Source: Tricharina praecox
Taxonomy: Eukaryota
NCBI RefSeq assembly: GCF_024521635.1
Contig: NW_026250410.1
Span: 992,001-1,056,000, forward strand
Direction: 5' to 3'
Length of the DNA: 64,000 nucleotides
Position numbers and translations under genes: made by a program. Shown in pieces: positions 10,125-57,967 of this stretch. Within the stretch, counting starts at the first letter, position 1. Each line of letters opens with the position of its first letter. Under the pieces are notes generated by a model. It worked only from the letters and a program-made list of their open reading frames with translations. It ran no database searches and was not told where the DNA came from.

Positions 10125-13100
10125 CTACTCCTCGCTTCTGGTCCTCTTAGGATCTGAACCTGTCGTGTCATCGCTAGCACCACCGACAGCAGCTTCAATC
10201 TTCCGTTTCACCGGTACGACATTCCCGTTACTACCCTCAACCGGTGGTCCCGTAGGATCGTATTCCGCTTGTCCCTGTTTCTGTCCCGAACGCTTGGCCA
10301 CTTCTCTCGCTTCCTTTGCCTTCTTGCGGTCTGCATCGTGTCGCTTCTTTTGGTTGTCGCGCTCTTTACGGCGCTCCATCTTAGACTCGTACTCATGCCA
10401 GTCACCACGGAGGTCTCGCAAGCTGATCGAGAAGCGTTAGCACAAATTCACCATTGATAGAGCTATATCCAGTCGGAGACATACCCAAGCGGTGGCTCCG
10501 GAGCCGGGTCCTCGGAGAAGTATGGGTGTTTTAAGCAGTCCTCAGCAGTCGGTCGCCGTTCGGGGTTGTATTGCAAGAGTTGTGTGATCAAGTCCATGGC
10601 GGATGGCGGAATTTGCCTGGGAAAGAATCGTCAATCACCAACCCTTCATCATCACAGCGATATCAAGGATACAACACATACTCGGCAAACTTTTTCCGGA
10701 ATCTGTTCTTCCGGTTCAGACCGGACGTCCTCAGGAGCGAGTACCAGGGCATTTGTTTCAACTTCGGCCACACTTTCTCGGTAGGCTTGCCCAGAATCTT
10801 ATAGATGATATCCAGCTGGTCGATTTCCGTCCTGCCCGGAAACAGTGGGACGCGGGTGAAGAGTTCAACAAAGACGCAGGCGGCGCTCCACATATCGACA
10901 GCGGGACCGTATGCTGTAGCACCGAGAAGAATCTCTGGTGGACGGTACCAAAGGGTAATGATCCTATTCGTATAATCCATTTCCTTCTTGCTGTTCTTGG
11001 TGTAGAAGCGCGCCAGACCGAAGTCGGCGATCTTCAGCTGTCCGTCGTTGTTCAAGAGGATATTGGAACCTTTGATATCGCGATGCAAGACACCACGGTG
11101 GTGCAAGTAGTGCAATGCATCGAAAAATTGCCTCGCCAGGTGCTTAATGTGTGTGAGCTCGAGTCTGAACGTGGGGTGGTTGAGAATTCCGGTCAAGTCG
11201 TGATCCATGTAGTCGAACACCATGTAAAAATCACCTGGCCTCTATCAGCCAATTGAACCGCGAGACCAATGGTTGGTTGTACTTACTCTTTTCCACCATC
11301 ATTTCCAACAATGAAACGATATTCTCATGCTTGAGCGCTTGAAGTAGTTTCATCTCCCGAACAGCGGTGATCGGGAAACCGTCCTTTTCATTTTCCATTC
11401 GAATCCTCTTTAGTGCTACCAACTCTTTGGTAAGATTGTTGGAAGCTTTGTAGACCTTGCCGTAAGTTCCCTCTCCAACCATGCTAACCCTATGATATAT
11501 CGGCATATCCTTGACGATAATCTCGGGGCCCGGGGGTGGAGGGGGAGGTGGCGGCGGCGGTGGAAGTGGCGGAGACGGAGCTCTGACATGTCGCGGTGAG
11601 TTACGTCTGCGTCCTCTGCGGGGACCTTCGTTCGGCGTAGGTCTCGGTTCTGGCTGTCTAACTCGGGAGAGCCTGGCCGTGAGGTCGATAGTCCGACCCC
11701 CCAGTGGTGCGCTATTACTGCCAGTCGCAAACTTACCCATCCTCATATCTAGGGCCTTTGGTGCTGGTTTCACGGGCTTGGAAGACTTTGTAGGTATAGC
11801 CATGGTGAACTTGATCTTTTCCGCTGCGGGGGCCGTAGGAGCGTTTTCAGGAGCGGTGTTGTCGGGACCACTAAGCACCTTCTTAAAAGACTTGACTGGC
11901 TCTTCCCCAGATACGGGCTTGGTTTCATGTTGCATCTCGGGCGGCTTTTGGTCGGCAGCGGGACCGGTAGGAATCGGACGTTCGCCGTTAACCTCTGGAG
12001 ACAGCTGTTGACTTGGATCGTCATGACTGCGAGCCCCGGGAGACCCGCCGTGAGAGTCCCGGCTCTCAGACTGCAATCGGTCTTGTGTAGGTGCTGGAGG
12101 AGATTGGTCCTGCCGTCCTGGAGCTTCAGAGTGGCCACCGCCTCTACCACCTCTGGCTGAGCCCCGCCCTCGAGCTGGGAATTCGCCACCGAAGGTCCTG
12201 AAATCATTAGCTTTTCATCACGCATTGGCATTTAGGGTTTCCTACAATGGCTGGTTACGATGGTGATCTGCTCCACCACGACCACCGCGACCACGACCTC
12301 GACCTCGACCTCTTCCACGCTCGGGACGATCCTGCACCAGACGTTGTCGCTCCGGGTTCACATATGGTCCATTACTTGGACCTTCCGGTTGCCCCTTGCT
12401 GCTAGAATCGCCAACGGTGGATTGTGAGTCATGGACATCACTACGCCGACTAGACGGTCGTTCTGCTGTATCACGCTTTGGCGACCTAGGGGGAGTCCGA
12501 CGACGGGGTGGGCCACGGTTTGAATCTCGCGAGCGACTCCGTATTCGTCCTTCGGATGGGCCGTGATCGTCCTCCCGCCGACCTCTGATCCGACGTTCCG
12601 GTGGTCCACGATCCAGAGCCGTGCGATTGGACCTTGATGACGCAGCCGGTGGCGATGGCCGTCTGTCAGGAAATAGTTCGCGTGGTGGTCGACCGGAACG
12701 TGGAGGCGATCGTGTACGCATGGGAGGTGGTGAGTATGCTGCGTGTACTGGAGGGGAACGAGCACGTGTTGATGGCGGTGGCGGTGGTTGATCGGGCCTG
12801 TCACGATATGGTGACCTGTCCGATCTGCTCTGTGAATGTCGATGCCGGAGAGGAGGATAGTCCGCATCATTCTTCTTCGAAGGTTCCCTCCGAGGCGAAG
12901 AACCTCTACGCGCGGGCGGGCTGACATATCTAGATTTCAGGGGAGGAGGCGATGGTGGCCTTCGGGACCCCCTCTCGACTGAGTATCCGCGGGAACGAGG
13001 GGGCAGTGGTGGAGGTGAGAGATCAATAAGAGGTGGTAGTGGAGGGGGGGATCCGGGTTCGCGTCTTGAAGGCGGTGGAGAGCGCTTGCGGTAAGCCGCT

Positions 13101-13723: not shown

Positions 13724-16196
13724 GACTGGTTGGGGAAGGACGGGTGGGACACCTGCGGGTTGGGGAGACAGTTCACGTCAGCGATCTGTTGCACAGCGAT
13801 GTTGGGGATTCTGCCAGACGACATACTCGAGAGACCGCGACACACGCACACACGCTAGGCAGTACACCTGCCCTTCTTTTAAAATTATGTGGGCGTTAGG
13901 TTGTAAACCGTAAAGCTGGTTGTTCTGGATGTTTGATTATCTCAGACTTTTTGGTTGGTTAGGTTTGGTTAGATATCAACGCGGCGAGTCGGGAGTGACA
14001 AGTCGTTCGGGGTCGGTCAGAAGTAGAATTGGTGAAGTGAAGGGCGAGCCAGCTGCAGTGGTGGCTTCAGGCTTGGCACTGTCCGGACGCGCCCCTCGCT
14101 CGCAAGTGTGTGTAGTGGTGGTAGTGGCAGCTGTGGTGAGAAGCGAATCCGCATAGCGAGAAAGGCGTCCGTTCACTCGGCTTCTTCCCTGTCCTCCTCT
14201 TCTATCTTCTCTTCTCTTCTCCGCTTTGGAATGAAAAGAAGATGATTAAGATCTGCCCCGCGTTTCTCGCTCTGGGGGGAGGGGGAAAGTGAAGTGGCGG
14301 GTGAGATTGGGGCAGTCACCCGCCCATCCGCTCCGCCATCCCATCATCATCACCACCACCACGACCACCACCACCCGTACGTGGCCGGCATGCGAGAAGC
14401 AATCGCCGCCACCACCACCACCACCACCACCTCTACCTCCAACAGGCAGTGTGTAGAAGTATGCAGCATGGCCTCCTCAGCCCATCCGACATCCACCTCA
14501 GCCCATCCGACGTTCCCGACTCCATCCATGATCTTCCTCTTTCCTCCATCTTTGACCCCACACGATTCCCAAAGAAAACCCCCGACCCTCATCGCCTGCA
14601 TCTAACTCGGCACGATAAACCCCACAGGGACGGGAATCTCTCTCTCCCTCTTTCTCTCAGAGAATTTCAAAAATGAAGCCCCTCTCTCCCGTCCATCAAT
14701 CCAGACCGAACCAATCTGTCTGGCAATGATGATGACACGGGCAGCATAACAACATATCAAACACAGAAAAAGGACAGAAAAATAACAATATCCAAACCGA
14801 GCATGGCTCTTTCTTCCCCTTCCTCTTTTTTTCGTACCATTGCACAGCCCGCCGGGCTGCAGTGTGTCGGTGGCAGACAAGGCGAGGCAACCCCCCCTCC
14901 CCCCGCCCCCCCCCCAGGCCAGCTCTTCTCACAGCCGCCAAAATCTGGTTGACGTCGCGTGTGTATGTAATCGGGTCACCGCCGAAGACCCGTCCCCGAT
15001 AAATGTGGCCGAATGATCTCCGTTTGACGACCAGCGACGACGACGACGACGACAGACGATATATATCTGCCTATCTGCCTGTTTGTCTTCCCGTCTTTGA
15101 CGGGCCGTTTTCTCGAACCATCATGGGAGCTCCAGGGAGGGTGTGTATCTACTGCCGAAGCTTTGGAAGGGACAGACCACCACTGGCAACCGCCAATATA
15201 AAGTTGTGTTGTCTTCTTCTTCTTCCTCTTCTTCTTTCGCGTGCGCGTCATCATGACCCCTCCATACCATCGCCCATCCAGTACAAGAATTAGTTCTGTC
15301 GGCACCGTGCTGCTTGCTGTTTTCGTCGCGAAAAAAAAGCCGAGAGACAACGGCGACAACGACGACGGCCGGTCGACCCTTCCTCGGGGCTGTATTCCTG
15401 TGTCTGCCTGATGCTGCTGCAGGTTGCTTCATTCCCTATAATCCGAGAAAACCCGGCGCCATGTTCGACCCCGCGGAAAGCGGATAATGATCGGAACAAG
15501 CGATAATCGCGTCCCATCCCATGCCATCCCCTTTCATTTCGTTCCGTTCAGTGCCTTTGAGTCCTGTCCCGTAAAAGTTGGGGTTGGAGTTGGAGGTGAA
15601 TATCAAGTCTCTGCCGGGCGCCGTGGGGGGTGAATGAAGTGAAGTGACGTATAGATATCAGTTCCAGATCCAGTTCCAGTTTCCTGGCGAGTTCGCATCG
15701 CCGCGCGACCACCGTCGCCGCCGAAGCTTCCGTTCCGCGACGGGACCCATCTGTCACGTCAGTAAAACACTTAAGAGCCCCAATGGCATGCGGGTTCTGT
15801 TCTGTTGCGAGCGACGACGTTCGGATTCGCAGGGCGTGGTGGGACAGTGGGTTGCGGTTTTGGGGGTATTAGGAATCATGGGGCGGTGGTGGGTGTGGGT
15901 CTTGGCTTGGCTTGTTCTTGGTGGTGGCTGCATCTCAAAACATCGAGGAACGCTGTGAGTGATCGATCCTCAGAAAAATTCACCCACACAAGAAGGGAGC
16001 AAATTCAACAGAATCCCAACAGTCATCTTCAATACTATATTAAAGGGCGCTTCAAGAATCTCACTTCGCTATATACTTTGGTATATTCCAAGCCCCCCAT
16101 CGTCCACAAATAAAACTCCATCAGATATGCAAACGCCCAACAATTACACACATACAAACACCTAAAAGAAATTCTAGTGCACGCTCCCAGTTCCAA

Positions 16197-19100
16197 CTAC
16201 GCTAGCATATACGAAAGATCCGGCAGCCCGTCAATGATCTTTTTGATTATCTCGCCTTCTTCCATCTCCCTCTTTCCCTTTGTCGGGGTGGGCGGCACCG
16301 GAGCATCCCATAGATCTTTTCGTACAGGCGGTGGTGGCGCTGGTGGTTGACTTGGCTTGTCGAAGAATGAGAGGTCCCACTCGGTTGATGCTGGTGCTGC
16401 TGTGATAGATGTGGTTGTGGCTGATCCTCCGAAACTAAATGCAGTGCCATTGCTGCCCAAGCCCGTCGCTACCGTTGAGGTGTTGGTTGAGAAAGCATCA
16501 AGCCCGTTGAATAAACTCCCACCAAGCCCTGCAAACAGATCCATACCAGCGTCAGAGGATATGGAGGGTTTTGCCGAGTGAGATGGAAGCGACATGGGCA
16601 CTGGCGTCTGCATGCGGGAGGTATTATCAACAGATTTAGTTGGTGACTGCATCTCGCCCCATTCATCGTCGTCGCGAACCAGATCGTGATCATTATTTAT
16701 AGCGATTGACAGAGCGGAAGGTTGTGGTGGTAGCGGCTTGTTGGTGGTCTCCGGGGCTGGGGGTAGTTGTTTGGCTATTTCCACTGGTTTTTTCGTGCTG
16801 ATGACACTGTCGGGTCGGGAGCTGATTGTACTATTGCGAGATGATATCGGCGAAGCGGGGCTTGATGGTAGTGCTGGAGGGGACGTTGGCTTGATCGACT
16901 CGAAGGCAGCCCATCCATCGCCTGAATCTCGGGGCAAAGGGGTTGTTGCCTTTGATGGTGTTGAGACGAGCGCCTCGAATGCACCCCAGTCATCCGAGGA
17001 TTGCGATGCAGGTTGAGCATTCACCGCTACACTCGGGGTACATGGCTTATTGAAGCTATCAAAGCTATTTCCCCAGTCGTCCATGCTTGATGTGACTTGC
17101 GTAGTCGGAGGTATTTCGTCTTTGGCCGGAGGCTCAGGTGCCACGTCGTTTGGCACTTGCATCTTTGGTGTTGGGGGGCCGCTGGCCATTGCGGATGATG
17201 CAAATGACGCTACGGTGGGCGAATTTTGCCTCGTACCGCGTCCAAGAGTCAATGAGACTCTCCGAGATGCAGGCCTTGAGTTGGCAGCGCTCAAAGGTAG
17301 CACATCAAAGCTTGACTTTTCAAACGGTGAATTGTGGCCGCTGAAGCTTGCCTTGGCTAGCGGGGACGGATGGTTGCTCGAGCTAGCCCATCCAAAGTGA
17401 GGTGTAAGAGGTGAAGGGACGGATGATCGTTGTATCGACGGGGGCACCGTTGACGTGTTGAGCGGTAGAGGTGGTGTACGCAGCCCGCTCTCACTGGTGT
17501 GTCGGGAATGTGTTTGCAAGGCAGGAACAATTTTCGGCGTACCGAGAGAAAGTCGTTTGTTGGCCTCACTTGATATCGGCGACGGCGACGGCGACGACCC
17601 AGCTCCCCATCCAAACATGGAACTCAGATTCTGTACACTTTTACGCCCATGCCCTCCAGTGCTTTGTGTTTCGGTCAGCCACTTGGCCACAATCTTGTGC
17701 ACCTCGCCTTGCACATTTGACCCAGGCCAGGTGACGCGGACGTAGTCGTCGTCGTCTACAGCGTTCTTCTTGCGTAGCGTTCCGTCTTGCGTCAATCGAT
17801 ACCACGCTTTCCGTCTACAGAGCTATTGTCAGCAGACGGTCATATTCTACCTACGATTCAGATCACTCACGCTCCAGTGGTGTGTATCACCTCGCCCTCT
17901 ACCGGAGGCGGATCGGGTGAGCTAGTCGGTATGGGGTAGAGTTTGCGGACGAGTGATATGTCTATATTGAATGCCGGGACACCGTCTGAGGGCGGCGGCG
18001 GCGGCGGAGGTGGGGACGACGGGGCTACAGCCTCGGGCTGTACCTCGGGCTCGGTTCCAACAAAGTCATCGAATTCCGCCTCCTCGGCAAAGTCTCCGAA
18101 ATCGTCATCACCTCCGGCATCCTCGGTATCTGAAGATTCCTCATCGTGCACTTGAGTGTCGGCGGGTGGCTTGTCTTGGGTAGTGTCCGACGACAGCTCC
18201 ACCTCCGTGACTGACCCATTGACGTCCGTATGTATAGCTGTGGTTGTTGGTGTTGTTGGTGCTGCGGGCGGCTCAATTTGCGGGCTATCTCGGTCTTCCT
18301 CTTCCCTTTCCTCTTCCTCTTCCTCTTCCTCTTCACTCTGCTCACTCTGCTCACGAGTCGGAGAGGAAGGAGAAGTTTCGGGTAATACTTCCGCGGACTC
18401 CGACCTTTCTCCGACCTCCGCCACCACCACCACCACCACCACCACAGTCTCCGCCTCTTCCTCTTTCTCTTGCCCAATTTCCCCCTCTTCTGCTTCTTCC
18501 ACCTCAGCTTCTTCTACATCAGCCTCCTTTACCTCTGTCACCTTCTCCACTCCGCCATCAACAGCTCCCCCCACATGTATATCCAACCCCACCTCTTGCG
18601 TCTGATCGAACGACGACCCATCCATCTCCACCTTCTCCAGCACCGGCGATGTCGCCGTCTCCACATCAGGCTCAATCTTTGAACTTTCCGCCCTCTCCGC
18701 CACATCATCAAGCACATCACTCGCCGCGCTCCACTCGACCTCCTCGATAGTCGGTGGCACCGGCTTCTGCAGCTCTAGGTCAAGCTGTGGAGTTTCCACG
18801 GGAACCGGCACCTCCTCATCTTCCCCGTGTGTAGAGCCCTCATGTATAGAGCTAGCAGCACCCCACTCCGAGCCGGCCCCCCACTGCTCATACCCGTTCC
18901 CGGGGCCGGGCGAGAACCCCTTCACTCCCGCCGCGGCCCACAGCCCAGGCCCATCATCGTCGGCGGTATTCGCAACCGCCCAATCCGAAAGCGGCTCGGT
19001 AGAAGTAGTAGTCGTAGTCGTCGCCCAGGCCGACGTCTCGCCAAAGCTGTCCGCCCACGGATCCTTCGATTTCGCGGCCGTGGAGTCGTCGTGTTTCTTC

Positions 19101-19219
19101 GTAACAGTAATCGTGGGGGCAGCGGCAGTGGTTGTGGTGGAAGTGGTGGCAGCAGTCGTGGTCGTGGTCGTGGTATCATCCGCCCACGGCGAGCCCCAGC
19201 CGTCCGCGTCGTCGTCCAT
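16197..19219 (-). CDS. Largely disordered protein with many acidic-aromatic adaptor-binding motifs; aftiphilin-like candidate; exons 19219-17871, 17814-16197 (988 aa)
   Basis: Two long ORFs joined in frame by intron 17870-17815 (GTGAGT..CTGAC..TAG). Conserved-looking block RKAWYRL..GTLRK..DDYVRVTWPGS and C-terminal IIDGLPDLSYMLA. The function call is inference. Confidence 0.85.
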
Positions 19220-20784
19220 GCTGCAGCTGTGATGATGCCGGTGGATGGGATGGAACGTCGAGCATGTTCCGTTCGTCGCGGTCCGGTGGCAGGCGACGGG
19301 GGGTGCTGTCAAAGCGGGACGCTAGATGCTGTGGTGCTAACTATAGTGGTCGTTGGTTGGCTGGAACGTGATGACACTCTTTTGCTTGCTTTGCGCCCCT
19401 GGTTGCGCTGGCCGGTGGCTGCACGTGCGCGTGGCTTGGCTAAGGGGACTATGATATGGAGCTTGAAACATGATTCACCATACTATGGAGACATACTACC
19501 GCAACACAGCGCTGATACTCTAGATTACCTCGAGCTTGCAAACGGATCGATGACCGGTGACCGCGTCTGGGAATAGGAGACTGGGAGGTGTCATCGCCGC
19601 CGCCGCCGCCCACACGCCCACAAGCCGTGTCGCAGCCGCAGCCCGGATCATCCTATCTTCACGCCTCGTATGATGCCTCGTATGATACTACTCTACATAC
19701 ACCTACACAGAAGAGCACTCGGCCAGCGCCGGCAATAGAGAAAGTACTCTGCCGGCCCTTCTTTCCCAAACAGAACGGCGCGCGTACCTTACTCAGCTAG
19801 GTAACAAACGTAGTGTACCTACTGGCACACACACAGTACGATTCAGCAGAGATCCGACCAGGTACTTTTGTATGTAGAACGCAGCATCGACCCATGGACC
19901 ATGGACCAGCAAAGCAAAGCAAAGCAGAGATATCACACACATGACAGTAGCTCAGCTCCACTACCTACGGCGTTCCTGCATGCAGGAACTTGGAAGGGCT
20001 AGGTATCTTTGCCCTAAGCAAGTGTAGGTACGTACGATGGTACCGTAGGTGTCCATATCCATGACCTGGAACCTGGTGCTGGCCGTTGAAACTTGACCGT
20101 TGGCCGTTGAACTAAATCCTGAGATCATACCTGTTCTTTGGGTACATACATACCGTACCCTAGTCTCTAGAGTGCTTATGTAGGTACAAGTGGCCATCCT
20201 CGGCGCTGCAATGCACTGTGATTCTGTGAATTGAAGTCACCTAGGTACCTATGCAAGTGATGGCCCATGAAGGAGTCGCTGGATAAATAACTCAAATCAA
20301 CTCGCAGGGTCGCAGTCAGGCTACGGACATACGGTGCAGAGTTACAGCCTTCATATATGTACCTAGGAAGCTCCATTCCTCCTGTGGTCCATCGGGACTA
20401 ACCTACCTACACACAGGTAGAAGCACAGCTTCTCGGCCAACCACATGTGCAGAATCCGGCAGAGGACTCTTCACACCTACCTGGTATGATATGTAGCATG
20501 CAGAACGCAGAACGCAGAATCCGACGGGCGACGCTCGTTCCTTCTTCCTTCCTTCCTTCCTACCAGTACCGGTATACCTGAGGTGATTATGTATGGCTCG
20601 CCGCATTACGTCCACACCCACCCGCACACACGCAGGCCGCACGCCGCGCTGCACCGCATTGACCATTCCACCACCCACCGTACAGCGACGTACCGCGACG
20701 TGCCACGTATCTTGAGCGACCATGGACTTGTGCACTCTTGTGCACTCCTGTGCAGCACAATGTTATGCAAGCTCCACCACCCCC

Positions 20785-26333: not shown

Positions 26334-29300
26334 AGGAATCTGATCCTCTCCCTCGCTCAGCCACCTGTATGTTTCTCCCCCCTTCCTGTCTCGTTCGTTC
26401 GTTCGACCAAAATCGGCCGATCGGTCTCCAGCGGTGTCGTCGGCCGGTTTGTGGTTCGGGCGTGGGTTGGGTGTGAGGTCTGGCGGCGCCGGCGGTGGTG
26501 GTGGTAGTGGTGGTTGTGGTTGTGGTACTGGTTGTGGTTGGGTTGTGCGCGCGGTGGCCTTAGTCGCTCGCTCGCTCGCGCGTTGGACGTCCACCGCTGC
26601 CGGCCGGCCATGCTTGCTTGCTTGGATGGGCACTGGAGCAGCAGCTAACGTGGCAATCGTCCACTCTTCTTGATGATCGATGCTGCTGCTGCTGCAACCT
26701 AAGCAAAAAAAAAGGGCATCTCATAGCTAATATATCATTTGGCCTTCTCTATAGCCCTGCTGCCTGCGCCCTCATCGCGGCCCTCTTCTCCATCTTTGTC
26801 GTCGCCGTCCCCTGCTCCGCAGCAACAACAACAACAACAACAACCACCCCCGCCTCCTCCTCTCGCTTCTCCTCCTCCCCTAGATCCTACCTCCACCGCT
26901 CCTACCAAACCTCCACCACCGCTTCAGCAAACCCAACCGCCGCCGCTGCCACCGCCGCCACCGCCACCCGCTCCTCCACCTATACCGACCATAGCACTGC
27001 CCGTTGGTACTCCGGCGCCTACGTCTCGCCCTTCGTCACCCGCGCCGTCGCAAGAGATGACCGTTGCTGGCGGGCGGAACTCGCACAAGCGGTCGTCAAA
27101 GAAACAACGTCCTTCTCTACCTGCACACCCAGCAGCAACCGCTCCAGCGGGCCGGCTGCCTCTCGTCTCTCCAGATTTCTACCACACTCCTCCCCCTTCA
27201 ACCATACGCACAAATGCATCCGTGTCGGAGTTAGCACAGCTTGTGAAGTCGCAGGCCTACCATGAACAGAAATACTCGCAGTCCAAACTGCGCCTCCAGA
27301 AATCGCTGATAGCGAATGGAATCTCGGCGCGGTTGACGAGAACGGGCGACCTGTGTCACAGGATGTTGGTGGACCACTTCAAATCGGATCAGAAGTCGGA
27401 GTTTGCCACTCTCTACAATGCGATCCATGATGTGCGCAATTCGTGCGAAGCCAGCCGCCGGTTCGCTATGCTAGAGCCGGAGTTGAACTCTAAGGCTTTC
27501 AAGTCCAACGACGATCAGGATATCCATCCGGCTGGCACCTCGTTCCTCCAGCAGCTGCCTGCTCAGGCGCGAGAAACAATCTTGACGTTCATCCAAAGCA
27601 TTAGATCGAACCCGTCATTCCTCGCTAGTCGGTTGAGTCGCTTGTCCAACTCGGAGCTCGAAGCGCTTTCCCGGTTTCACCATCAACCCAACCCCCAAGA
27701 GTCGATTCTCCCACAGCAGGCCTCGAGACGAGGGACCGGATCGGTGAGGGGTCACCCGCAGTTGGGAGCAATGCCGAGTCCGGTCGAACGGCTCCTTGCT
27801 TTCCACCGTAACGACCCACTGTATACTCTGCTGCACACCGTCTTTGCCAATTCCACCGGACCCGACTCTCCCGAAGACTCGAGAAAATTGGACATTTGGG
27901 CGACCACTTGTGCTAGGTTGATCGCTGAAAACAAGGGAGAGTCGTTTCTGATGTGTGTCATGGATTCGTGGACTGCGATGCGAGAATGGCCGGCCAAGGC
28001 GAATCTGGAGATCTGCATCATGGATCTCGTCCAGGAAGGCTCATTTCTTGTGGAACGAGCCGAAGAACAAGCGACCGGTCGGTCATCGGACGTGCGAGGA
28101 AAGCACGACCTTCTTGCCGAAGAGTTCTGGACCAAGGCCGAGAGGAGACTCTTTGAGGTATTGGACGATGAACCTGGTGCTGGTGGTATTCCGGAAGGTA
28201 TATTGGAGCTGGGACATGCGATTCTGGAGAAGATGGAGGATCCAAAAAAACAGCGCCAAGCCGAGATCATGATTGTCGTGAAATGGTTCTTCAACCGCTT
28301 TCTGGCGAATGGCGTCGCTTATCCAGAGGTAAATTCCGGGCGCATGTCTCACTGTCGTTAATGCTGCTAACCGGACTGAATCATCAGTATCATGGAATCA
28401 TGACTGGTCACCATATCAGCGAACATGCCCGACTAAAGATCCTGCGGCCCGTCCTTAAGAAGATGTACAATCACGCTGTCAGTGTGGTCTTTGGCGATTG
28501 GTATGATTGATATCTCTCTTGGCAGATATAGCCCTCAACGACTGACCTGTAATAGGAAAACCAATTCTCCCGTAGAGCCTGTGATCAGAACTCACATCGA
28601 GAACTTATTGGAGAGATTCCGCTGCCCTCGGCCCATCAATACACCTCCTGTTCTTGTCTCCACCAAGGCTGTTGCATCCCCACCGGAAACATCGGAGGTG
28701 CAACCTTTCCTTGTCGTCAGCCCGGCCGACATCATTACTCTCTGTAATGCTATTTATCCTAACTCTCCCACCACGCAGATAGATCCTCGCGATATCCAAA
28801 AAAGATTGTCTAGTCGAGCATCTTCCCGGATGCAGGCCAAGTCGCCCGGAGGCTTCGATATCGGCGCAGGATCTGTCCTGAGCGATGGCAGTTCTTCTCT
28901 GACTAGCGATACTGCTTCGATAACCGCGCCTCTGTTGGAGCGCGGGAGTTTCCAGGATGATAGACGGTCCTTCATGTCCATCCCGTCGCCTTCACCTTCG
29001 TCTTTCAACATGGCCCCACCTTCTTTGGCAGGAACAGAGACCCCCATGACCATCCCCGAGAAATCGGGCGCTGCCGAGGTCAGGTCGGCGGTGGAAGCCA
29101 TGCGGGGACGACTGGGTTACGATGCTGTCTCTGGGCGTTGTCACCCGTGTGCCGAGAAGTGGGCTGTTATTTACATTTCTCCGGATGGTGAAGAACTGAG
29201 CCTACGGATGCGCAAGGAGTGGGAAGACGATGATGAAGACGACGACAACGACGAACATGGTAGTGAGAGCGAAGACGAGCAGCCTACAGAGCTGGACGGA

Positions 29301-32132
29301 CTCGATCGCGACTACGACCAACTGAAGCAGGCCATCCTGAAGCTGGTTGATGAGTATGAGATTCCCGAAGAGGCCAAGAACGAAGGCGAGCCCGAGGCAA
29401 GACCCGTTCTGAAGAAGACCTTGAGCACCCCCGCCCCTTCGTCGTCTCCCCCAGATTCTCAGCTGGATCCAAGTAATCCATTCCACCAGAGCAATTTGAC
29501 TGCCATGTTTGCCAAGAACCAATCTAGACCGCCTGCTCCCGACAGGTCGCGAGGTGTGCCCAAGGACTTGGAAAAGCCGAAGAGACAACAGCCAACTGGA
29601 CTCCTCGTGACCATGCTCCAGGCTGCATATAGCCAGTGTTACGCCAGGGGAGACTATGTCTCGGCGCAGATGTACTTCCGAGCTGGAATCCAGCTCCGCA
29701 AGGTTGCGCCTTCTTTGCAACGAAACGAGTTCGCCCCCCTGCTTCACATCTTCTCTCACTCCGCCCGCCGAGCCATCGACAAGTGGGCGGCAACGATGGA
29801 CGAATACGAACACTGGTTTGTCTGGGCCGCGCAGGCCAACGAGAGACTTGACTCTTCAATTCAAGATATGATGAAGAAGATCAAGGACCTCCGAGACAAG
29901 ATGTGGTATGTCACTGATGTTCGCAACTCTGCCGCCTACGATGAGGCCAAGAATGTCGCTCTCGCTCTGAAGAGGATGGCCATGCCGCAACCTGCAAAGC
30001 CACCTCCGACGAAGGCTACAAGCCGAGCTACCTTGACGCACCGCATGTCGACAAGCAGTTTCTCTCTCCTCAAGTCGGACACGTTGATCGACATCCTGGC
30101 GGCGACCAACGAACATGGTGGTCCAAACAAGCTTAGCGATGAGCAAGCAGTCATGACCTCGGAATACCTGAGCAAGTACTCGGTCGAGAACTTCTGCAAA
30201 GGTGAAGAACGTATCCATCGGTTCTGCCTGGAAATCGATAAATGTGTTACCAAACTGGTTGGCGATGGTATACTCGACGGGCCTGTCCTTTGGTCGAGCG
30301 AATTGTTCTCGCGTGATGATCGGGAGATGTCCCCTAACCGCCCGAAGGGCGATCTGTACCTTGCCGGAGTGGGCACATTGAGCGTCACAGGTGACGAGGA
30401 CATCGAGCCGGAGCGCGAAGATGGCCGGAGCAGTCGACGGAGCATAGAGATGTTGAGAAGACCGAGCACAAGCGACCTGTTCGGCAGGAATAATAGGTCT
30501 GCAAACCTCGTTGGCTCTCTGCACGATCCTCCGCAAAGCCGTAAAGGGTACACTAGATCGAGCACTGGGCTTATGGATGCGGTGGGCAGACAAGATCTAT
30601 TTGGGATGCCGAGTCCGGCCCTGCCGTCGGAATCGCACAACACGTTCTGGTCGCCGTTTTCGTCTCATATCACCCACACTGCCACTGCGGGGCGGCCGAA
30701 GACGGCGCACTCGCCGACTACCCTACTGAAGACGTCGGAAATGATCACGCAGGAGAAGAAGAAGTTCCTCGCCGAGCTGAAACAGTCGTTGACTGGGCTG
30801 CTCCTGAGCGACCTTGGCCTCGAAGTTTTCAGCCGTGGAAGTGAAACTGACGCATGGTTTTCCGGCGGTTTGGGAGACGACTGCATCCTAAGGAAAGAAG
30901 AGCAGGAGGAGGCCAAACGGAAAGAAAGGGAGAGGGAGAGGAAGAAGTCCAGTTCTGCGGGTGTGCGCAAGGGATTGTCCAAGAAGAAGAGCACCAAAGC
31001 TATGCGCAAGGACAAGGCAGGAGGCACTCTTGAGGCGCTGGGCCTGGGCAAAGATAGGAAGGGCGAACTTGCTGCTCCAGTCGCCACGTTCGAAACAGTT
31101 GGTCGCGAAGCATGCTCAGGGGAGGAGAATTCATCGTCCAGCGATGCCACAGCCCGGTCATCCAAGTTCTCGGTGACGAGGAAGGGTGGTCTAATGGCTT
31201 TCCCCTACGGCCACGCTTTCCGAAGGCTCCTGCTCAAGTTCTCGACGCACCCCAACCCATTCCAGAAGCTTCATGCTCTGTATGAACTGGAACGCCTGAT
31301 CGTTGCGTCGCTTTCTCGACATTCGTCGTCTGATAGGCCAACGCTGCCGCCGCTTCCAACCTCGCCTTTCCTTGATGCAATGGGCGATTCCACTTCCCGC
31401 GTCTCCTGCGTGCAGCTCTCTCAGCCCACCAATATTGAAGAGGCCATCGCTAATCTCGAGGAGCGTCGGTCGAATGCTACTAACAATGGTGGCGTTAATG
31501 GCGCCCGTTGTCCATCGTCGCCGTCTGCTCCTAGCACCGATATGATTGTCGATGTTCTCCAGAGCCTCTTCAGACAGGCTGATATCCGTCCTGCCACTCT
31601 GTTCCGCGATCTTCAGTATGTTGCTGCCTTCGTACCTGCGTCTATCCTGGACATGACGGAGGTGGGCAAAGCCTTCTGGGATGCCGGGCTCGCCGCACTG
31701 GGACTCAAACAGGATGTCTGCCGCACAATGGTCGAGATTGCAGACGCGATCGTCGCCGGAGACGCCAATGGCAGAGAATCCGAAAATGCTGGCAAAGAAA
31801 AGGGCACCGAGAACGCCGACTACCTCCGCTACTCGATGCAGGATGCCGCCAACATGTGGATCATCACCGCTCGGGAAGGAGACCCTACCGCCCAGCGCGA
31901 ACTGGCCATCTTCTACCTGACCAACCCGTCGCTGCTTCCTAGGACCACAAAGCCTCTGTCCAAGCCGAAGGACACTTTCCGGCCCGACATGATGGTTGCC
32001 AAGGGAGAAGACCCCGAGAAGAGGGATCCTGCTACCATGTGTGTTGCATACCACTGGATGGAGCTGTCCGCCCAGGGAGGCGACGAACTGGCGCGTAAAT
32101 ATCTGAGGTCTCAGCGAGAGGAGTGGGCTTGA
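26330..32132 (+). CDS. Large protein with RasGAP-like N-half, divergent VPS9-like domain and C-terminal SEL1-like repeat (GAPVD1/RME-6-like candidate); exons 26330-26366, 26755-28328, 28388-28500, 28556-32132 (1766 aa)
   Basis: ORFs joined by canonical introns (5301 nt spliced). Domain calls come from motif resemblance described in the findings. The first exon is less certain than the rest. Confidence 0.85.
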
Positions 32133-42360: not shown

Positions 42361-45300
42361 ATGTCCTCTCCCAGTCCCGACCTTCCAGCGGCGGCAGATG
42401 CAGATGCAGTGACTTGCCCCCCTCCCCCTCCACCGTCCCACCACCCCGCCGAGTAACACCTAACTGACCCCCGCAGATCCGCAGCAAACGCTTAGCCCGT
42501 CTCCAAGCCCTGCAGCAGCAGCAACAGCAGCAGCGACCATCCGCAGAACCGAGCCATCCACCGCCAGACGCGCCCGACGAAGCTTCAAAGTCGGCCACGA
42601 CGCAGCAGCAGCACCGTCCGGAATCGCGACTTCTCGCCCCCACCACAACAAATCCCGAGGTTGCGTCTCCATCGCTCAAGCGCGCGGCGTCCCCCACGGC
42701 AGCTCCGCAGACCATCAGGATCGCGCCGGCGGCGGCGAGTGCTGGCCCGTTGAAGCAGCTACTGGCACCGGAGGGCGGCCTCACACAGCAGGAAGCCTGG
42801 GAGGATCAGAAACTCGGGCAGATTTTTAAGGTTGCGCTAAGGGTATGTGCTCCCCATCCTATACGTGATGTGGACACGTTGCGTTCGGGTGGGTGGGTGG
42901 GGGTGCTGATGGAGGGGTTGAGCTACAGTCGAGCCCGAGAACTACTTCCGGGGGTTATTTGATTCTGGATGATTTATGCAGAGACCTGCAGGACGAGGTC
43001 GAGCCGGGGAAGGGTAAGTGGAAGGAATGAGATCCTGCATGTCGTGTGCTCGCTCATTGATGTGCTCCTGTTCCAGTTCCCCACCTCTCGGTGTCGATCC
43101 TCGACCAATTGATCCTGAGCATTTGCGGCAAGAACGTGGTGCCGTTGAATCATCTGATCGGATCGTGGAAGCGAGCGATGGATATCCAGCGCAAGACTCC
43201 AGCGAGCAGGTTGGACGCGGAAAAGATTGGGATCCTGAAGGAGGTTAGGCGCATGTGCTCCAACTATGCGCTCTACTGCATCACGATGCCGGATATGTTT
43301 GGGTGGGTGGTCTTTGTGACGGGACACGGTGCGAGACCTTGCTGATTCGCGTATAGCGGCAATCAGCCCCCCGTACGGTTGGACCAGCGGTTGATCACCG
43401 ACCCGGAAGACGACCAGGGACTACCGCAGGACATCTTACTGGAGTGGGTGTCGAAACTTGACGAGGAGCCGGAGCTGTTGGGTAAATTCGAGGAAGCCTT
43501 CGTACTCATGAGCACAACACTAGCAGACATGAGTATGTGCGACGACTATAAAGTATACATCTCTGCGCTCAACCGAATAGCACATATCAAGCCGCTGGCG
43601 GACATCTTCACCGGCCTACCTGAATTCTTGTCTGAGACGGAACCACAGGACATGGAGACGACGATGGTGCTGGGCCCGTTCTTCCGGATCTCGCCACTGC
43701 AGGCCGAGGTATCCAGGCAATACTTTTCCAATGGCAAGGCGAAGGCAGCAGTCACCATTCGGGACACCACAAATGCCCTACGCATGGCCTCGAAATCGCT
43801 GCAGGAGGAGCTTGCGCAGATTGTGACGGCACTGTGCAAGGCTTCTGATCGGTCGCGCGGACGGGTGCTCGACTTCTTCGCCGCAGTCATCAATTCAAAC
43901 AGGAAACGTGCTGCACTTCACGTTGACCACACTACGGTTAGCTCGGACGGGTTCATGGTCAACATCTCGGCGGTGTTGACCCGTCTGTGTGAGCCGTTCA
44001 TGGACTCGACATATTCCAAGATCGATAGGATCGATGTGGACTACTTCCGTCGTAACCCAAGGCTAGAAATCGGCGAGGAGACAAAGCTGAATGCCGACGA
44101 TCAATCCTCGAAGAAGTTTTACTCTGAGGTCGTAGAGGGAAAGGATAGTTTCATCACCGAGATCTTCTTCCTCACCGTCGCGGGGCTCTACTATGGCTTG
44201 GGTACGACGGAGTCTGAGCACGACGGACTTGCTAGGGATATTCCCGAGATGGAGAGGCACCTGGCAAGAATTCAAGAGGACCGGCAGAGATATATTGGGG
44301 TATGCTATTACTGATACATCATGTATCACCCCACACTGGAAGGCAGAGACTAACCGTGACGATAGACTCCCGCTTTGGCAGTTCTCGACCGGAACATTGC
44401 CAAGATCAAGGACCGGATAGATGGCGCCATTGCATACAGATTCGCTCTCGAGGTGGTCCTGTGGGATCGCACCATACAAGCTTCGGTACTGCTGTTTATG
44501 AGGTATCAAATGGTTTGGCTGCTCAGACTTGTTGATCCACACCATCAGTACCCGAATAAGCTCATCACGTATGTCGTTCCCCCACCATCCGATGCCCGTG
44601 GCGAACTGACCAATGTGACAGATTGCCACTGCCCGACCCTCCGGCGCATGTTTTCAACCATCTACCAGAATATATGGTCGAGTCCGTTGGTAACATCGTC
44701 AGCTTCGTCAGCGTGTACACGCCCGAGGTTCTGATCTCAACACAGTTGACGGAGCTCCTGGTTTTTTCCGTGACTTTCCTGCGGTCATCGAAATACATCA
44801 TGAAGGCCACACTCAAGTCGAAGCTCGTGGAAATAATATTTTACGGCACTCGACCGGGTGGCCCGTCTCGCAGCGGTAATGGATATTTGGGAGAACTGGT
44901 CCATGGGAACAAGTTCATCCTGCAGCATCTGATGCATGCGCTGATGAACTTTTACATTGGTTTGCCCCTTCCCCTACCTATCCGACTGATGGAGGCTAAC
45001 AACAACACAGAGATCGAGAAGCATTACTACGAAAAGTTCAACGTGCGCTATCACATCTCCAAGATCATCCAGCAGCTCTGGCCCAACCAGCAGTACCGGG
45101 ACAAGCTCGAGCAAGAGAGCGAACACAACGTGGACTTCTTTGTCCGCTTCGTGGCCCTGTTGCTGAACGACGTGACATACGTCCTGGACAATGCTCTCGC
45201 CGCACTCATCGACATCCGCAAGTACCAAGATGAGCTCGAAAGCAGTGCGGCTAGCTTCCTTACTGAAGAGCAAAAGTCCGACAAAGAAAAAGCTCTGGCC

Positions 45301-46118
45301 AAAGCAGAGCGCGACGCACAATCATACATGCAGTTTGGCAACGAAACCGTAATAATGCTCAACCTCTTTACGTCCGCCATCGGCGATTCCTTTGTACAGC
45401 CCGAAATCGTCTCTCGCCTCGCTGGCATGCTCGACTACAACCTCGAAGCCCTCGTTGGGCCAAAGTGCAACAACCTCCGCGTCCGCAACCCCGATAAATA
45501 CCGTTTCAACCCCAAGGCGCTTCTCGGCGAAATCACAGGTGTATACATAAACCTCTCCTCCAAGCCTCCGTTCATCGAAGCCATCGCGCGCGACGGCCGC
45601 TCCTACAAGCCGCAAACCTTCGAGCTCGCCATCTCGGTACTGCAGAAACACCACCTCCGCAGTAACGAGGACATCGCGGTCCTTGCCAAACTTGCGCAGG
45701 AGGTGGAGATCGTCAAGGCGCGCGAGGACAAGGACGAACTGGAGCTGGGCGATGTACCAGACGAGTTTATGGATCCGCTCATGTTCACGCTCATGGAGGA
45801 TCCTGTCATCCTCCCTACGAGCAGAACGAGCATCGATCGACAGACTATCAAGTCGCATCTGCTCTCTGATGCTACAGACCCGTTTAATCGTGCCCCGCTG
45901 AAGATTGAGGATGTTGTGCCTGGTATGTTAACTTCCTTCCTTCCTTCTTTCCTTGGAGAAAAAAAAAGAAGGGTGTGGGATAAATGGCTGACTGACTGAC
46001 TGCTGGAAAAGATACGGAGCTGAAGGGAAAGATCGATGCGTGGGTTTCTGAGCGCCGGGCGGCGGTGAAGGCTCAGAAGGTGGCGGCAGAGAGCGGAGCA
46101 ATGGAGATAGATGGTTGA
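42361..46118 (+). CDS. UFD2: Ubiquitin conjugation factor E4 (U-box), 9 exons: 42361-42408, 42477-42842, 42929-43013, 43077-43302, 43357-44299, 44366-44568, 44622-44959, 45011-45922, 46012-46118 (1075 aa)
   Basis: [10 protein letters not shown]-terminus, [37 protein letters not shown]-box [38 protein letters not shown]; 3228 nt spliced. Confidence 0.96.
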
Positions 46119-54361: not shown

Positions 54362-55982
54362 ATGTCGACACTCCTCCCCCCCAAAGCCAAGCGCGTAAAG
54401 CGCGAAGAACTGCAGCGCGCACGGGAACAACAGGCACCAGACCTGGTCCCCGACGATGTGCCAAATGTCGTTATACAACTGCGCGCATCAGACACCGGCA
54501 CGCAGCTGGGCGGAGAGTTGCACATCCCCGGCAATGCGAGCGCGCAGCAGCTGGATCAGCTTGTTAACAAGCTTTTGGGGAGTGTATGTTTTTTTCTCTC
54601 CATTTGTAATGGCGGCGGGATATGCGGGGCTGATTGAGGTTGGTGCGTAGGAAGATGATAAAGTTCCGTATACCTTCTCGCTCCTCTCGAACCCTGCGGA
54701 CCCGAATTCGGCGGTGATAGATATTGCCACCGACCTGTGGAGCGCTGTGTTGAAGCCGGGCCACAAGTCGACGGAAGACGTGCTCACGCTGGTATACACC
54801 CCGCAAGCGGTGTTCCGGGTGCGTGCTGTGTCAAGGAGTTCGGCGGCGATCGTCGGGCATGGAAACGCCATCCTTACTACGCAGTTCTCTCCGGCGTCGA
54901 GTAGTCGCATGGTTACGGGCAGTGGGGACGGCACGGCGAGGATATGGGATTGCGACACCGAGACACCGATGCATACATTGAAGGGCCACACGAACTGGGT
55001 GTTGGTCGTCAGCTGGTCGCCGGACGCAGAACTGGTCGTAACGGGGAGTATGGACAACACCGTACGCATGTGGGATCCGAAGTCAGGCAAGCCCCTCGGC
55101 GACGCCATGAAAGCCCACAGCAAATGGATCACGGCGATTGCGTGGGAGCCGTACCACCTGCAACAGCCGGGCACGCCGCGCTTCGCCAGCTCTAGCAAAG
55201 ACACCACGATCCGGGTGTGGAACGCCACGCTGCGACGAGTCGAGTTCTGCCTCGCCGGGCACACCGCCGCCGTCACCTGCGTCAAATGGGCCGGTGACGG
55301 CCGGATCTACTCCGCGTCGCAAGACAAATCCATCCGCATCTGGGACCCCACCAGCGGCCGCTGCCTCCACACGCTCACCGCCCACGCCCACTGGGTCAAC
55401 CACATGGCGCTGTCGACCGACTTCGCGATCCGCACCGCGTACCACGACCACCTGGGGCCCAAGACCATCCCCTCCACGTCCGCCGAGCGCATCCAAAAAG
55501 CGCACGACCGCTTCACCGCGGCAGCCACCATCGGCGGCGAGCTCGTCGAGCGCCTCGTCACCGCGTCCGATGACAACACGATGTACCTCTGGGAGCCGTC
55601 GTCGAGCCTCAAGCCGCTCGCGCGGCTCCTCGGACACCAAAAGGCCGTCAACCACGTGTCCTTCTCCCCGGACGGCCGCATCATCGCCAGCGCCTCGTTC
55701 GACAACAGCGTCAAGCTGTGGTCCGCCCGCGACGGGAAATACATCACGACCCTGCGCGGCCACGTCGCCCCCGTCTACCAGTGCGCGTTCTCGGCGGATA
55801 GCAGGCTGCTCGTTAGCTCGAGTAAGGACTCGACGCTGAAGGTCTGGGACGTCAAGACCGGCAAGCTGCATACTGACCTCCCGGGCCACCAGGACGAGGT
55901 CTTTGCTGTCGATTGGTCGCCTGATGGCGCCAAGGTCGCCAGTGGAGGGAAGGATAAGGCTGTTAGGTTGTGGAAACATTGA
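54362..55982 (+). CDS. RSA4: Ribosome assembly protein 4 / Notchless (NLE domain + WD40), exons 54362-54583, 54651-55982 (517 aa)
   Basis: MSTLLPPKAKR, STEDVLTLVYTPQAVFRVRAV, multiple GH..WD repeats, GHQDEVFAVDWSPDG..GGKDKAVRLWKH. Confidence 0.96.
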
Positions 55983-56445: not shown

Positions 56446-57967
56446 CTACTCCATCATCAAATCGTCCTCCTGCATCATCATCATCTCCTTCTCCATTCCC
56501 CTAGCCCTTCCCGCAATGAGCTGGCGTCTGATCTCCGGTCCGACGAGGGGATGTCCCTTGACCAGCAGCAGATCGAGCAGGGCATCCCGCTGGTCCTCGG
56601 TGATATCGTTTCTGTAGCGCTCCGCGAACGCGAGCAGGCTCTTGTGCCACAGCAGCGGCAGCTGGTCGTCGACGCTCTTGAACCGGATGAAGTGGAACAC
56701 CAGTCCGTCAACGACTTTGTACGGCAGCGCGTACTTCTTGTCGATCAGCACTTGGATAAACACGCTGGTCGGCCCAGTGTAGTCCATCTCGCAAAGCCGG
56801 AGAAGCGCGGCCGCCGAGTGCAGCACCGGGATCGAGATGCGCGTGAGCACCGAGCCGATTATTTGTGCTTCTTTTAGGGAGCAGGTGCCGCTCTGGAGAT
56901 TACTGGTCAGTACTGACTGCGGAATAGCTGAGAAGGGTGGGGAGTATGGTGTGTACCTCGGCCAGAGGGAACAGGAAGCCCTTGAAGAACGCCGCTGGCT
57001 TGTATAGCGACTTTTTGATACTGTTGTAGAGATGAACGTTGAGTTTCTTGCTCTCATGGATTTCGTCGCGCACACGGTCCAGGAGAATTAATGACAAGAA
57101 TCTATCATACACACAATTAGCACACGGCTCATATCTCACGGAGGGGCACGCTTACTTCTGAGTCTGCGACGACTTCTGCGCGGCAAACAACTTCATCGCC
57201 TCGTAGCACGCATTTGGCGTCCACTTATCCGGTCTTGTAATAAACAATATCGGCTCCCAATTTTTCAGCGACGGAATAATCTTGAACGCCTTTGGCAGCT
57301 TTCCGGACTTATATCTTGACAGCAGGATTCCGACTCTGTGGGCGAATCATCAGCCATGAACCGACCAACCACGCATCACATGGACATACTTGGTGTAGAC
57401 CTCGACGACCTTCGGCGGCAGCGCAAGTACATCGTCCTGTCCCTTGCCCTGGCCGCCTCCTCCAGCAAGCTTCGCCTCGTGCTCCGCAATTTTCTCCAAA
57501 ATCTTATCTGCGAGCGAGACCCTCTGTTCCTGCTGCCCCTCCTGGGGCATGAAGCGATTGAAGAGCTCCTCGTCGCCCTCATCGACCTCAATCTCCTCGA
57601 CCTCCTCCTCCTCGTCCTCGAATCCATCATCATCGTCGAACTCTCCCTCATCGCTATCCTCCTCCTCCTCCTGCACCTGAATCCTCATCTGCGCGCCTCC
57701 ACCACCAATGAATGCACCCACGCCAACTGCGGCGGCGGCCGCCCGCTCCTCGGAGATCTCGTCTTGCTGCTCCTTCGCCAGCAGCAGGATCCGCTTCGAC
57801 AGCCCGCTGTCGACATAGTCCTCGGGCCGGTCCTGCTTCTCCTTGCGCTTGATGCGGGCCACCTTGCGCAGGTGCCCCGGCCCGTGCGACGTCTCGAGCA
57901 ATTCTTCGTGCAGTGGGTTGTGGCGGCGGTGCGCGCGCGGCTGTGCAAGCATTGTGTCCTTCGGCAT
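56446..57967 (-). CDS. ENP1: Bystin / 40S biogenesis factor Enp1, exons 57967-57390, 57335-57156, 57101-56957, 56892-56446 (449 aa)
   Basis: RRHNPL, SKRILLLAKEQQDE, LPPKVVEVY, LSRYKSGKLPKAFKIIP, SLYKPAAFFKGFLFP, SIPVLHSAAAL, KKYALPYKVVD. Confidence 0.96.

Follow-up and report, generated by a model that had tools for sequence, protein, structure and literature searches.

Which cellular pathway is served by the 988-residue, largely disordered protein that is encoded on the minus strand, at 16197..19219, of a 64-kb stretch of Tricharina praecox DNA (contig NW_026250410.1, positions 992,001 to 1,056,000; this whole stretch of 64,000 nucleotides is the window, to which all coordinates refer)? A sequence-only reading had taken the protein for an unrecognised fungal homolog of aftiphilin, or of Laa2, acting with HEATR5 and AP-1. 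HEATR5 proteins are conserved regulators of AP-1-dependent traffic. HEATR5 proteins reach AP-1 via fast-evolving cofactors (PMC10798858): three short helical regions (HR1-3; four in Lft1), joined by disordered linkers, attach yeast Laa2 and Lft1 and, by prediction, human aftiphilin and CLBA1 to the C-terminus of HEATR5. The AP-1 site of such cofactors is typically an FXX-hydrophobic motif in an acidic region, and its mutation in Laa2 abolishes the interaction of Laa1, the yeast HEATR5 protein, with AP-1 (PMC10798858). It appears probable, on balance, that the gene described here encodes the Pezizomycotina form of this fast-evolving Laa2/aftiphilin-type HEATR5 cofactor, although each of the binding steps is one that we infer.

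Gene structure and transcript

Two long open reading frames (ORFs), 17867..19219 and 16197..17822, lie on the minus strand of the locus and are joined by removal of a 56-nt intron (17815..17870), which reads GTGAGT...CTGAC...TAG on that strand and carries canonical fungal intron signals. Splicing of 19219-17871 to 17814-16197 yields 2967 nt, i.e. 988 codons and a stop, with the frame kept (GC|A, Ala450). The coding part of exon 1 (17871..19219) comprises residues 1-449 and two bases of codon 450, starting with the N-terminal MDDxWGSPWAD that is conserved in orthologs; the coding part of exon 2 (16197..17814) comprises the last base of codon 450, residues 451-988 and the stop codon (16197-16199).

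Contigs from two public runs of two different studies (X1 and X2, typed as RNA by guess only) are identical to the window sequence and overlap over ~16022-19345, with ends at 16022/16047 and 19333/19345 that are followed by adaptor-like letters; positions 18287-18478 were left out as a repeat when these contigs were placed on the window. The contig ends give an approximate extent of 16022..19345 on the minus strand for the spliced transcript. One contig in each run skips exactly 17815-17870, a segment with the ends CT..AC on the plus and GT..AG on the minus strand, so that an intron-less form exists, with both exons on one molecule. The gene model and its spliced form are established, and the two exons together encode exactly the 988 residues that the sequence-only reading had given for a disordered protein. 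Exon 1 also contains two microsatellites, (TCTTCC)x7.5 at 18294-18339, which encodes a glutamate run, and (CCA)x8.3 at 18421-18445, which encodes eight valines.

A family of filamentous fungi

A search with the exon 2 protein retrieved 26 proteins at E<=1e-3, among which the closest named relatives are Pezizales (Wilcoxina, Trichophaea, Sphaerosporella, Geopyxis and Peziza; 25-48% identity) and the more distant ones Leotiomycetes, Sordariomycetes and Dothideomycetes. A profile of the central block matched 467 clusters at E<=10, and when 1.84 billion representatives were searched exhaustively with HMMER, 537 matched at E<=1e-3, of which 477 also did so at E<=1e-10 and 412 even at E<=1e-30; the best 150 of the 537 are all full-length family members (322-824 bits). 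A profile search restricted to proteins of 2257-5000 residues gave no match. The named relatives among the matches listed are Pezizomycotina throughout, from five classes. All 120 block-profile matches listed are called ‘hypothetical’ or ‘uncharacterized’ or are misnamed, none having a precomputed Pfam domain, and neither a Pfam domain nor a functional name was found in any of the 146 matches listed when the 26 from exon 2 are included. Judged from these searches, the family is widespread in filamentous fungi (Pezizomycotina) and so far unnamed.

Alignments of 17 and of 129 sequences reveal conserved islands amid stretches that do not align. These islands are MDDxWG(S/D)PWA at the N-terminus, an acidic FG(D/E)F site that varies, and a central block with the consensus FxxDxxLxxLFP ... 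RKAWYR ... (D)DDxYxRVxW ... KIVxRWxxED, in which the R, K, W, Y, W and W that never change in the family are located; further, MFxW, FxWSS, WGEM behind an acidic run, DxWxxADFSFFE and, at the end of the protein, EEDxIVxxIIxGLPDLSYML(R/A). Invariance is strongest in the second of three short helices of the central block and in the linker between the second and the third. This is a conserved, well-defined and expressed protein with its short motifs mapped, a result that stands even if the predicted binding fails.

Some orthologs (among P0046, P0088, P0127, P0120, P0131 and P0182) carry the source name ‘glucan 1,4-alpha-glucosidase’ without having a glycosidase domain, and others are long fusions, with SMP-30/gluconolactonase names at 1274-1289 residues or CAF-1 subunit A domains in the 1463-residue P0182. 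Such fusions are probably merged gene models.

Architecture of the protein

The 988-residue protein is dominated by S (12%), P (11%) and T (10%), is also rich in A, E and D, and has a net charge of -94. Structure prediction by AlphaFold2, carried out for the 901-residue Wilcoxina ortholog P0005 with the 129-sequence alignment and for the exon 2 product (P0001) with 17 sequences, agrees with the disorder that had been read from the sequence: the predicted local distance difference test score (pLDDT) is below 50 in 699 of 901 and in 402 of 538 residues, respectively. In the P0005 model, the pLDDT averages 47.6 and no more than five helices are seen, at residues 330-336, 357-368 and 392-410 (pLDDT 73-88) and at 881-892 and 897-900 (pLDDT 93); the third helix and the C-terminal helices also appear in the exon 2 model. 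A fold search with the P0005 model against 48,161 chains reached a best Z of 2.8, with none at Z>=5, and a sequence search of the Protein Data Bank with the central block gave 0 matches at E<=10. With so much disorder and so few helices, the protein is predicted to be a string of short linear motifs, with three short helices and a terminal helix.

The elements of the central region (all on the minus strand, as are those described below) follow each other in the order acidic cluster, 30 residues, helix 1, helix 2, conserved linker, helix 3. The acidic phenylalanine cluster, DDDFGDFAEEAEFDDF (residues 371-386; 18062..18109, one base away from the position given previously), contains FGDF and FDDF, which conform to FXX-hydrophobic in an acidic run, and is a candidate docking site for γ-ear and GAE domains. 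The helix-1-like element FNIDISLVRKLYPIP (417-431; 17927..17971) contains the conserved FxxDxxLxxLFP island and corresponds to the helical residues 330-336 of P0005, in a block with a pLDDT of 84. The helix-2-like element RKAWYRLTQDG (451-461; 17781..17813), whose R, K, W, Y and R do not vary across the family, is helical in P0005 (357-368) and non-helical in the exon-2-only model, where it sits at the cut end. The linker DDDDYVRVTWPGS (470-482; 17718..17756), with Y and W invariant and R nearly so, leads to the helix-3-like element NVQGEVHKIVAKWLTETQ (483-500; 17664..17717), which is helix 34-50 in P0001 and helix 392-410 in P0005 (pLDDT 80-88). The C-terminal helix EMEEGEIIKKIIDGLPDLSYMLA (966-988; 16200..16268) is represented by helices 513-528 and 534-537 in P0001 (pLDDT 85-90) and by residues 881-892 and 897-900 in P0005; 112 of the 129 orthologs end in [LI]P[DSN]Lx[YF][MI]L. 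All sequence elements quoted by the sequence-only reading are present, namely its eight motifs, the block KAWYRL...YVRVTWPGS (residues 452-482) and the terminal EIIKKIIDGLPDLSYMLA.

Acidic aromatic motifs

Candidate motifs for the γ-ear of AP-1, that is acidic FXX-hydrophobic sites, are found in FGDF and FDDF of DDDFGDFAEEAEFDDF and in WGEM after DDDE. No other short motif of the family is as constant as the latter, DDDEWGEM (831-838; 16650..16673): the pattern [DE]3x0-1WG[DEQ][ML] occurs in 124 of 129 orthologs, as WGEM in 102 and as WGDM in 19. The consensus for γ-ear ligands, aromatic-G-[PDE]-[aromatic/L/M], reportedly goes back to Mattera et al. 2004. At least one site of this kind is present in every one of the 129 orthologs, as opposed to 9 of 129 after shuffling, and stands behind an acidic run in 126; the near-invariant DDDDEWGEM island fits it. 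The 988-residue protein has two copies at an expectation of 0.087, a number reached by 6 of 2000 shuffles. The motifs form conserved islands in the orthologs, and a lack of such conservation would have counted against the proposal of the sequence-only reading. Known GAE/γ-ear ligands include DFGGF, WNSF, WAAW and FGxLV, and aftiphilin is a GAE-domain partner, as stated in the review PMC13581114.

Comparison with 1000 shuffles of the same protein confirms that the acidic forms of these motifs are enriched: [DE]FG[DEP][FWL] occurs once (reached by 3 shuffles), [DE]W[GA]x1-2[FWM] three times (reached by none), and an acidic pair followed by F or W seven times (shuffle mean 2.2; reached by 10). 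Plain WxxF/W is not enriched in the protein (2 versus 0.9 in shuffles; reached by 238 of 1000). The richness in acidic-aromatic motifs noted earlier holds for the acidic forms and not for WxxF/W as such.

Further islands are distributed along the two arms. The N-terminal arm contains a tryptophan motif, DGWGSPWADD (residues 6-15, with DGWGSPW at 6-12; 19175..19204), of which the form W[GSA]xPW is found near the N-terminus of 106 of 129 orthologs, and a DPW-type motif, KDPWADSFGE (52-61, with DPWADSF at 53-59; 19037..19066). Downstream of helix 3 follow SMFGWGAG (515-522; 17598..17621), with invariant F and W, and HFGWASSS (589-596; 17376..17399), with conserved F and W and the family consensus AAFxWSS. 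Three acidic tryptophan motifs, DDWGNSFDSF (695-704), DDWGAFE (724-730) and DGWAAFE (749-755), which together span 16899..17081, are common to the aligned Pezizomycete orthologs, and EWDLSFFD (928-935; 16359..16382) represents an island of the form D[FL]S[FIM]F[EDG] that occurs in 78 of 129.

Relationship to Laa2

Pfam was searched by hmmscan (E cut-offs 1 to 10) with 240 orthologs, with 16 isolated blocks and with the products of both window exons. The Laa2 family, PF17104 (YBL010C_LAA2), matches three of the 240 orthologs, all below its curated cut-off of 24.7 bits: P0207 (E 4.2e-4, 20.9 bits; residues 311-434 on profile positions 12-123), P0220 (E 0.02, 15.4 bits; residues 301-383 on positions 13-94) and P0007 (E 0.3, 11.6 bits; residues 310-365 on positions 6-65). 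The three matches are collinear (profile 6-123): each begins at the acidic element equivalent to DDDFGDFAEEAEFDDF, with its FGDF, and leads into helix 1, and that of P0207 continues through RKMWYRLSRYGPMR of helix 2. For PF17104 alone, ~4e-6 matches at E<=4.2e-4 would be expected by chance over 240 scans (240 x 4.2e-4 / 24736). In the ESM Atlas, one small cluster is the top named neighbour of the helix block both in a Pezizomycete and in a Dothideomycete ortholog (scores 0.77 and 0.75), the two query blocks being ~40% alike; PF17104 is assigned to 53% of its members. We read these comparisons as weak but real evidence of common descent with Laa2, sub-threshold and yet specific.

In ten orthologs, including P0188, P0207, P0208, P0214, P0216, P0219, P0224, P0226 and P0234, weak matches to PF23197 (IG_AIR9, the AIR9 A9 domain; E 0.012-0.19) were seen just after the helix block, at ~residues 445-570. 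They are below any threshold and are probably noise shared by descent.

The C-terminal helix and aftiphilin

Motifs of the γ-ear/GAE type in a disordered acidic protein, as predicted for the fungal family, are a trait also of aftiphilin, which is similar in length to the 988-residue protein. A C-terminal helix of the form ...GLPDL[ST][FY]M... is taken by us to be an aftiphilin feature as well, although no source was found that names it as defining; four strings of the fungal C-terminal motif were found in no searchable paper.

A scan of metagenome contigs with the C-terminal motif of the family, in which Y was relaxed to F, yielded 34 loci. Thirty of them look like chance; in the other four (L004, L011, L012 and L015), the motif is followed by a stop codon after 9-22 residues. 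L004, on the minus strand of a eukaryotic contig with a GC content of 0.69, has at least eight DFGDF-type motifs (DDFGDFG repeats) upstream and a last exon with LFDWSAGG and ERAQRLLDGLPDLSFM, 18 residues before the stop. L011, on the plus strand of another eukaryotic contig (2-3032), has a frame of at least 1005 residues with 13 acidic WxxF motifs of the DWGAFDEAP type, followed by RRNAWTLAAKGEDD..., an FDIDFFND island and a last exon ending in VLDGLPDLSFML, nine residues before the stop; by its sequence, the product resembles an aftiphilin-like protein from a eukaryote other than a fungus. Ear-type motifs are absent from the remaining 32 loci. L012 and L015 are short vertebrate-like genomic fragments, probably host DNA in the metagenome, with three exons (...LLNLDFFGP..., ...DPELYELT...AFARLMS..EKTSTS... 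and ...AKVIAGLPDLSFMQAKVLMFP...), the last of which matches the C-terminal helix of the family in its core. The two fragments appear aftiphilin-like, with an end almost identical to the C-terminal string that the sequence-only reading gave for aftiphilin, although no tool names them. As the search pattern that led to them was itself derived from the C-terminal motif, this likeness is not independent, and the same circularity applies to the C-terminal hhalign matches at 77% and 72%, the loci having been chosen by that motif.

The products of L004, L011, L012 and L015 match neither PF15045, the aftiphilin/CLBA1 family (Clathrin_bdg), nor PF17104, and L011 has no Pfam match at all. The strict pattern D[FL]S[FIM]F[EDG] is found upstream of the motif in none of the 34 loci; a relaxed LDFF-type pattern is present in L011, L012 and L015 and in 0 of 30 other loci, which is weak because the pattern was chosen after the data had been seen. 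What can safely be concluded is narrow: distant eukaryotes have further disordered proteins rich in ear motifs that carry the motif of the terminal helix at their ends.

A more far-reaching reading is that Laa2 and animal aftiphilin belong to one ancient, pan-eukaryotic family of HEATR5 cofactors, linked by the fungal family, in which a Laa2-like core (the acidic motif and HR1-3) would reside within a long, disordered, aftiphilin-like protein, with the C-terminal hydrophobic-x-GLPDL[ST][YF]M helix as a conserved and previously undescribed module. We regard this as a tentative proposal, whose chances are somewhat less than even. Clear homologs of Laa2 and Lft1 are confined to fungi and those of aftiphilin to animals (PMC10798858). 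Higher eukaryotes are also said in the literature to lack an ‘overt orthologue of Laa2’, and the one paper found on a filamentous fungus that mentions Laa2 does so by citation only.

A possible bridge between HEATR5 and AP-1

A HEATR5 cofactor of this kind could function in the following manner: The central block (residues 417-431, 451-461 and 483-500 with the Y-x-R-x-x-W linker) would lie along the C-terminal HEAT repeats of fungal Laa1/HEATR5, and the acidic aromatic motifs of the disordered arms (DDDFGDF/EFDDF, DDDEWGEM and perhaps the tryptophan motifs) would dock onto the γ-adaptin ear of AP-1. The same acidic motifs may also bind to the GAE domains of Gga proteins. In this way, the protein would form a bridge between HEATR5 and AP-1, both at endosomes and at the late Golgi, with the C-terminal GLPDLSYML helix as a putative further conserved binding element. 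The helix 2 and linker positions that are most invariant in the fungal family would correspond to regions that matter in known cofactors: HR2 is essential in Lft1, and mutations between HR2 and HR3 break the interactions of aftiphilin, CLBA1 and FEZ2 (PMC10798858).

If this reading is true, filamentous fungi, among them many pathogens of plants and animals as well as species used in industry, would gain their missing AP-1/HEATR5 adaptor, intermediate sequences would become available to join the yeast and animal cofactor families, and the conserved C-terminal helix would be a new element.

Counter-evidence and alternative explanations

Several results weigh against a HEATR5 cofactor. The best PF17104 score stays below the cut-off of the family, 237 of 240 orthologs have no match, and both window exon products fail to match it at E<=10. 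The isolated 103-residue block matches neither PF17104 nor PF15045 (0 of 16), the acidic FGDF stretch, as the part of the Laa2 match that is most easily obtained, could be due to a similar composition or similar motifs and not to common descent, and Atlas scores of 0.75-0.77 rank as leads only. As for aftiphilin, PF15045 matches 0 of 240 orthologs, 0 of 16 blocks and neither window exon in the same hmmscan comparison; hhalign of the block with the L011 protein aligns six columns at a probability of 0.05%, hhalign of the family with the non-selected exons of L012 and L015 gives nothing, and a local hidden Markov model of the family detects only the C-terminal motif among the 2718 ORFs of the 34 loci. 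The canonical DFGDF site is not constant, as its strict form, [DE]FG[DEGP][FWL], is present in only 25 of 129 orthologs. A clathrin-box reading was rejected, such boxes being present in 4 of 129 orthologs, and direct binding to clathrin, as implied by the label of a clathrin accessory protein, is without support. The proposal of the sequence-only reading is thus supported in part: its Laa2-like alternative has gained from the sub-threshold PF17104 matches and the Atlas neighbours, and profile similarity to aftiphilin, the lack of which was to count against the proposal, is not seen at the level of hmmscan.

DP[FW] is common as well, being found in 119 of 129 orthologs and on average 2.59 times per protein, so that an endocytic role is still conceivable. 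DPW and DPF are ligands of the AP-2 α-ear and, together with WxxF, of the AP-2 appendages. The protein might accordingly be an adaptor-ear accessory protein of another pathway, e.g. a ligand of the AP-2 α- or β2-ear or a partner of Gga only, with the helix block bound to a partner other than HEATR5. The WGAF and WAAF motifs of the 988-residue protein and the missing PF15045 match would fit such a role, and HEATR5 binding is a prediction. We nevertheless consider it rather unlikely, as Laa2 is the only specific family signal, the motif common to all orthologs is of the γ-ear type, WxxF-acidic motifs of the strict form are limited to 5 of 129 orthologs, and an acidic motif combined with three short helices corresponds to the published HEATR5-cofactor layout.

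A different possibility is an Lft1-type HEATR5 cofactor, which would bind Laa1 with its helix block and act in an AP-1-independent intra-Golgi recycling complex, or a single cofactor that serves both complexes. Lft1 and Laa2 occupy the same Laa1 surface with superimposable HR1-3 despite little sequence likeness, and Lft1 has a fourth helical region (PMC10798858), for which the conserved helix at the C-terminus of the fungal family could be a counterpart. This appears improbable, since the sub-threshold Pfam matches and the Atlas neighbours point to the Laa2 family and to no other, and acidic γ-ear-type motifs are universal in the fungal family, yet Lft1 is described as showing no detectable AP-1 binding (PMC10798858).

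Least of all do we expect an unrelated disordered protein (FG-nucleoporin-like, an Arp2/3-activating acidic-tryptophan protein or a COPI δ-COP ligand) whose likeness would be due to composition and chance motifs: short motifs are degenerate, plain WxxF/W does not exceed shuffles, no Pfam family scores above cut-off, no chain of the fold search is similar and some orthologs bear the glucosidase name, but the motifs are conserved islands that shuffling largely destroys, the Laa2 match is collinear over three separate elements, the glucosidase names come without a glycosidase domain, and the single FSFG-like site of the protein is not a conserved island.

Genomic neighbourhood

The 64-kb window contains no gene for HEATR5, γ-adaptin or Gga. 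The neighbours are ordinary housekeeping genes, none with a link to membrane traffic: a Ufd2-type U-box ubiquitin elongation factor (43346-45999, plus strand), bystin (56446-57087, minus), a TAF6-like histone-fold protein (59590-60207, minus), a WD40 protein (54651-55982, plus), a GH3 glycosidase (62316-63998, minus) and a protein kinase (11231-12214, minus). Two adjacent plus-strand ORFs, 26727-28361 (544 residues) and 28437-32132 (1231 residues), have no Pfam match at E<=1e-3; the ORFs across 26727-32132 may form one large gene without a recognised family.

Comparison with known HEATR5 cofactors

The family shares with Laa2 an acidic FXX-hydrophobic motif that is followed by short helices with disordered linkers (predicted here, and given for Laa2 in PMC10798858). 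It differs in size, as the Pfam model of the whole of Laa2 has 292 positions compared to 988 residues, and in the elements N-terminal WGSPWAD, FGWSS, DDDEWGEM, DLSFFD and the C-terminal GLPDLSYML helix, which match nothing in the Laa2 model. Laa2 has been shown to bind Laa1 and the Apl4 ear (PMC10798858), interactions that are predicted for the fungal family.

Lft1 (YML037C), to judge from its published description, is similar in having four helical regions on the Laa1 C-terminus, to which four confidently helical elements of the fungal family correspond in the models; it is set apart, by description only, through its lack of detectable AP-1 binding, in contrast to the acidic γ-ear-type motifs of every fungal ortholog. 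Human CLBA1 and FEZ1/FEZ2 are reported or predicted to use the same HEATR5 surface via short helical regions that weakly resemble Laa2 (PMC10798858), and arrays of ear-binding motifs are not mentioned for them there.

Aftiphilin (AFTPH), the partner of HEATR5B and γ-synergin, is likewise long and mostly disordered and combines ear-binding motifs with a short helical region, which in aftiphilin is described as binding HEATR5. The C-terminal helix is placed differently, ending the fungal proteins two residues after M-L and being followed by ~18-22 residues in the vertebrate-like fragments L012 and L015 and in L004. HEATR5 cofactors look lineage-specific because they evolve fast, and the fungal family, to judge from its sequence, would join a Laa2-like core with an aftiphilin-like build.

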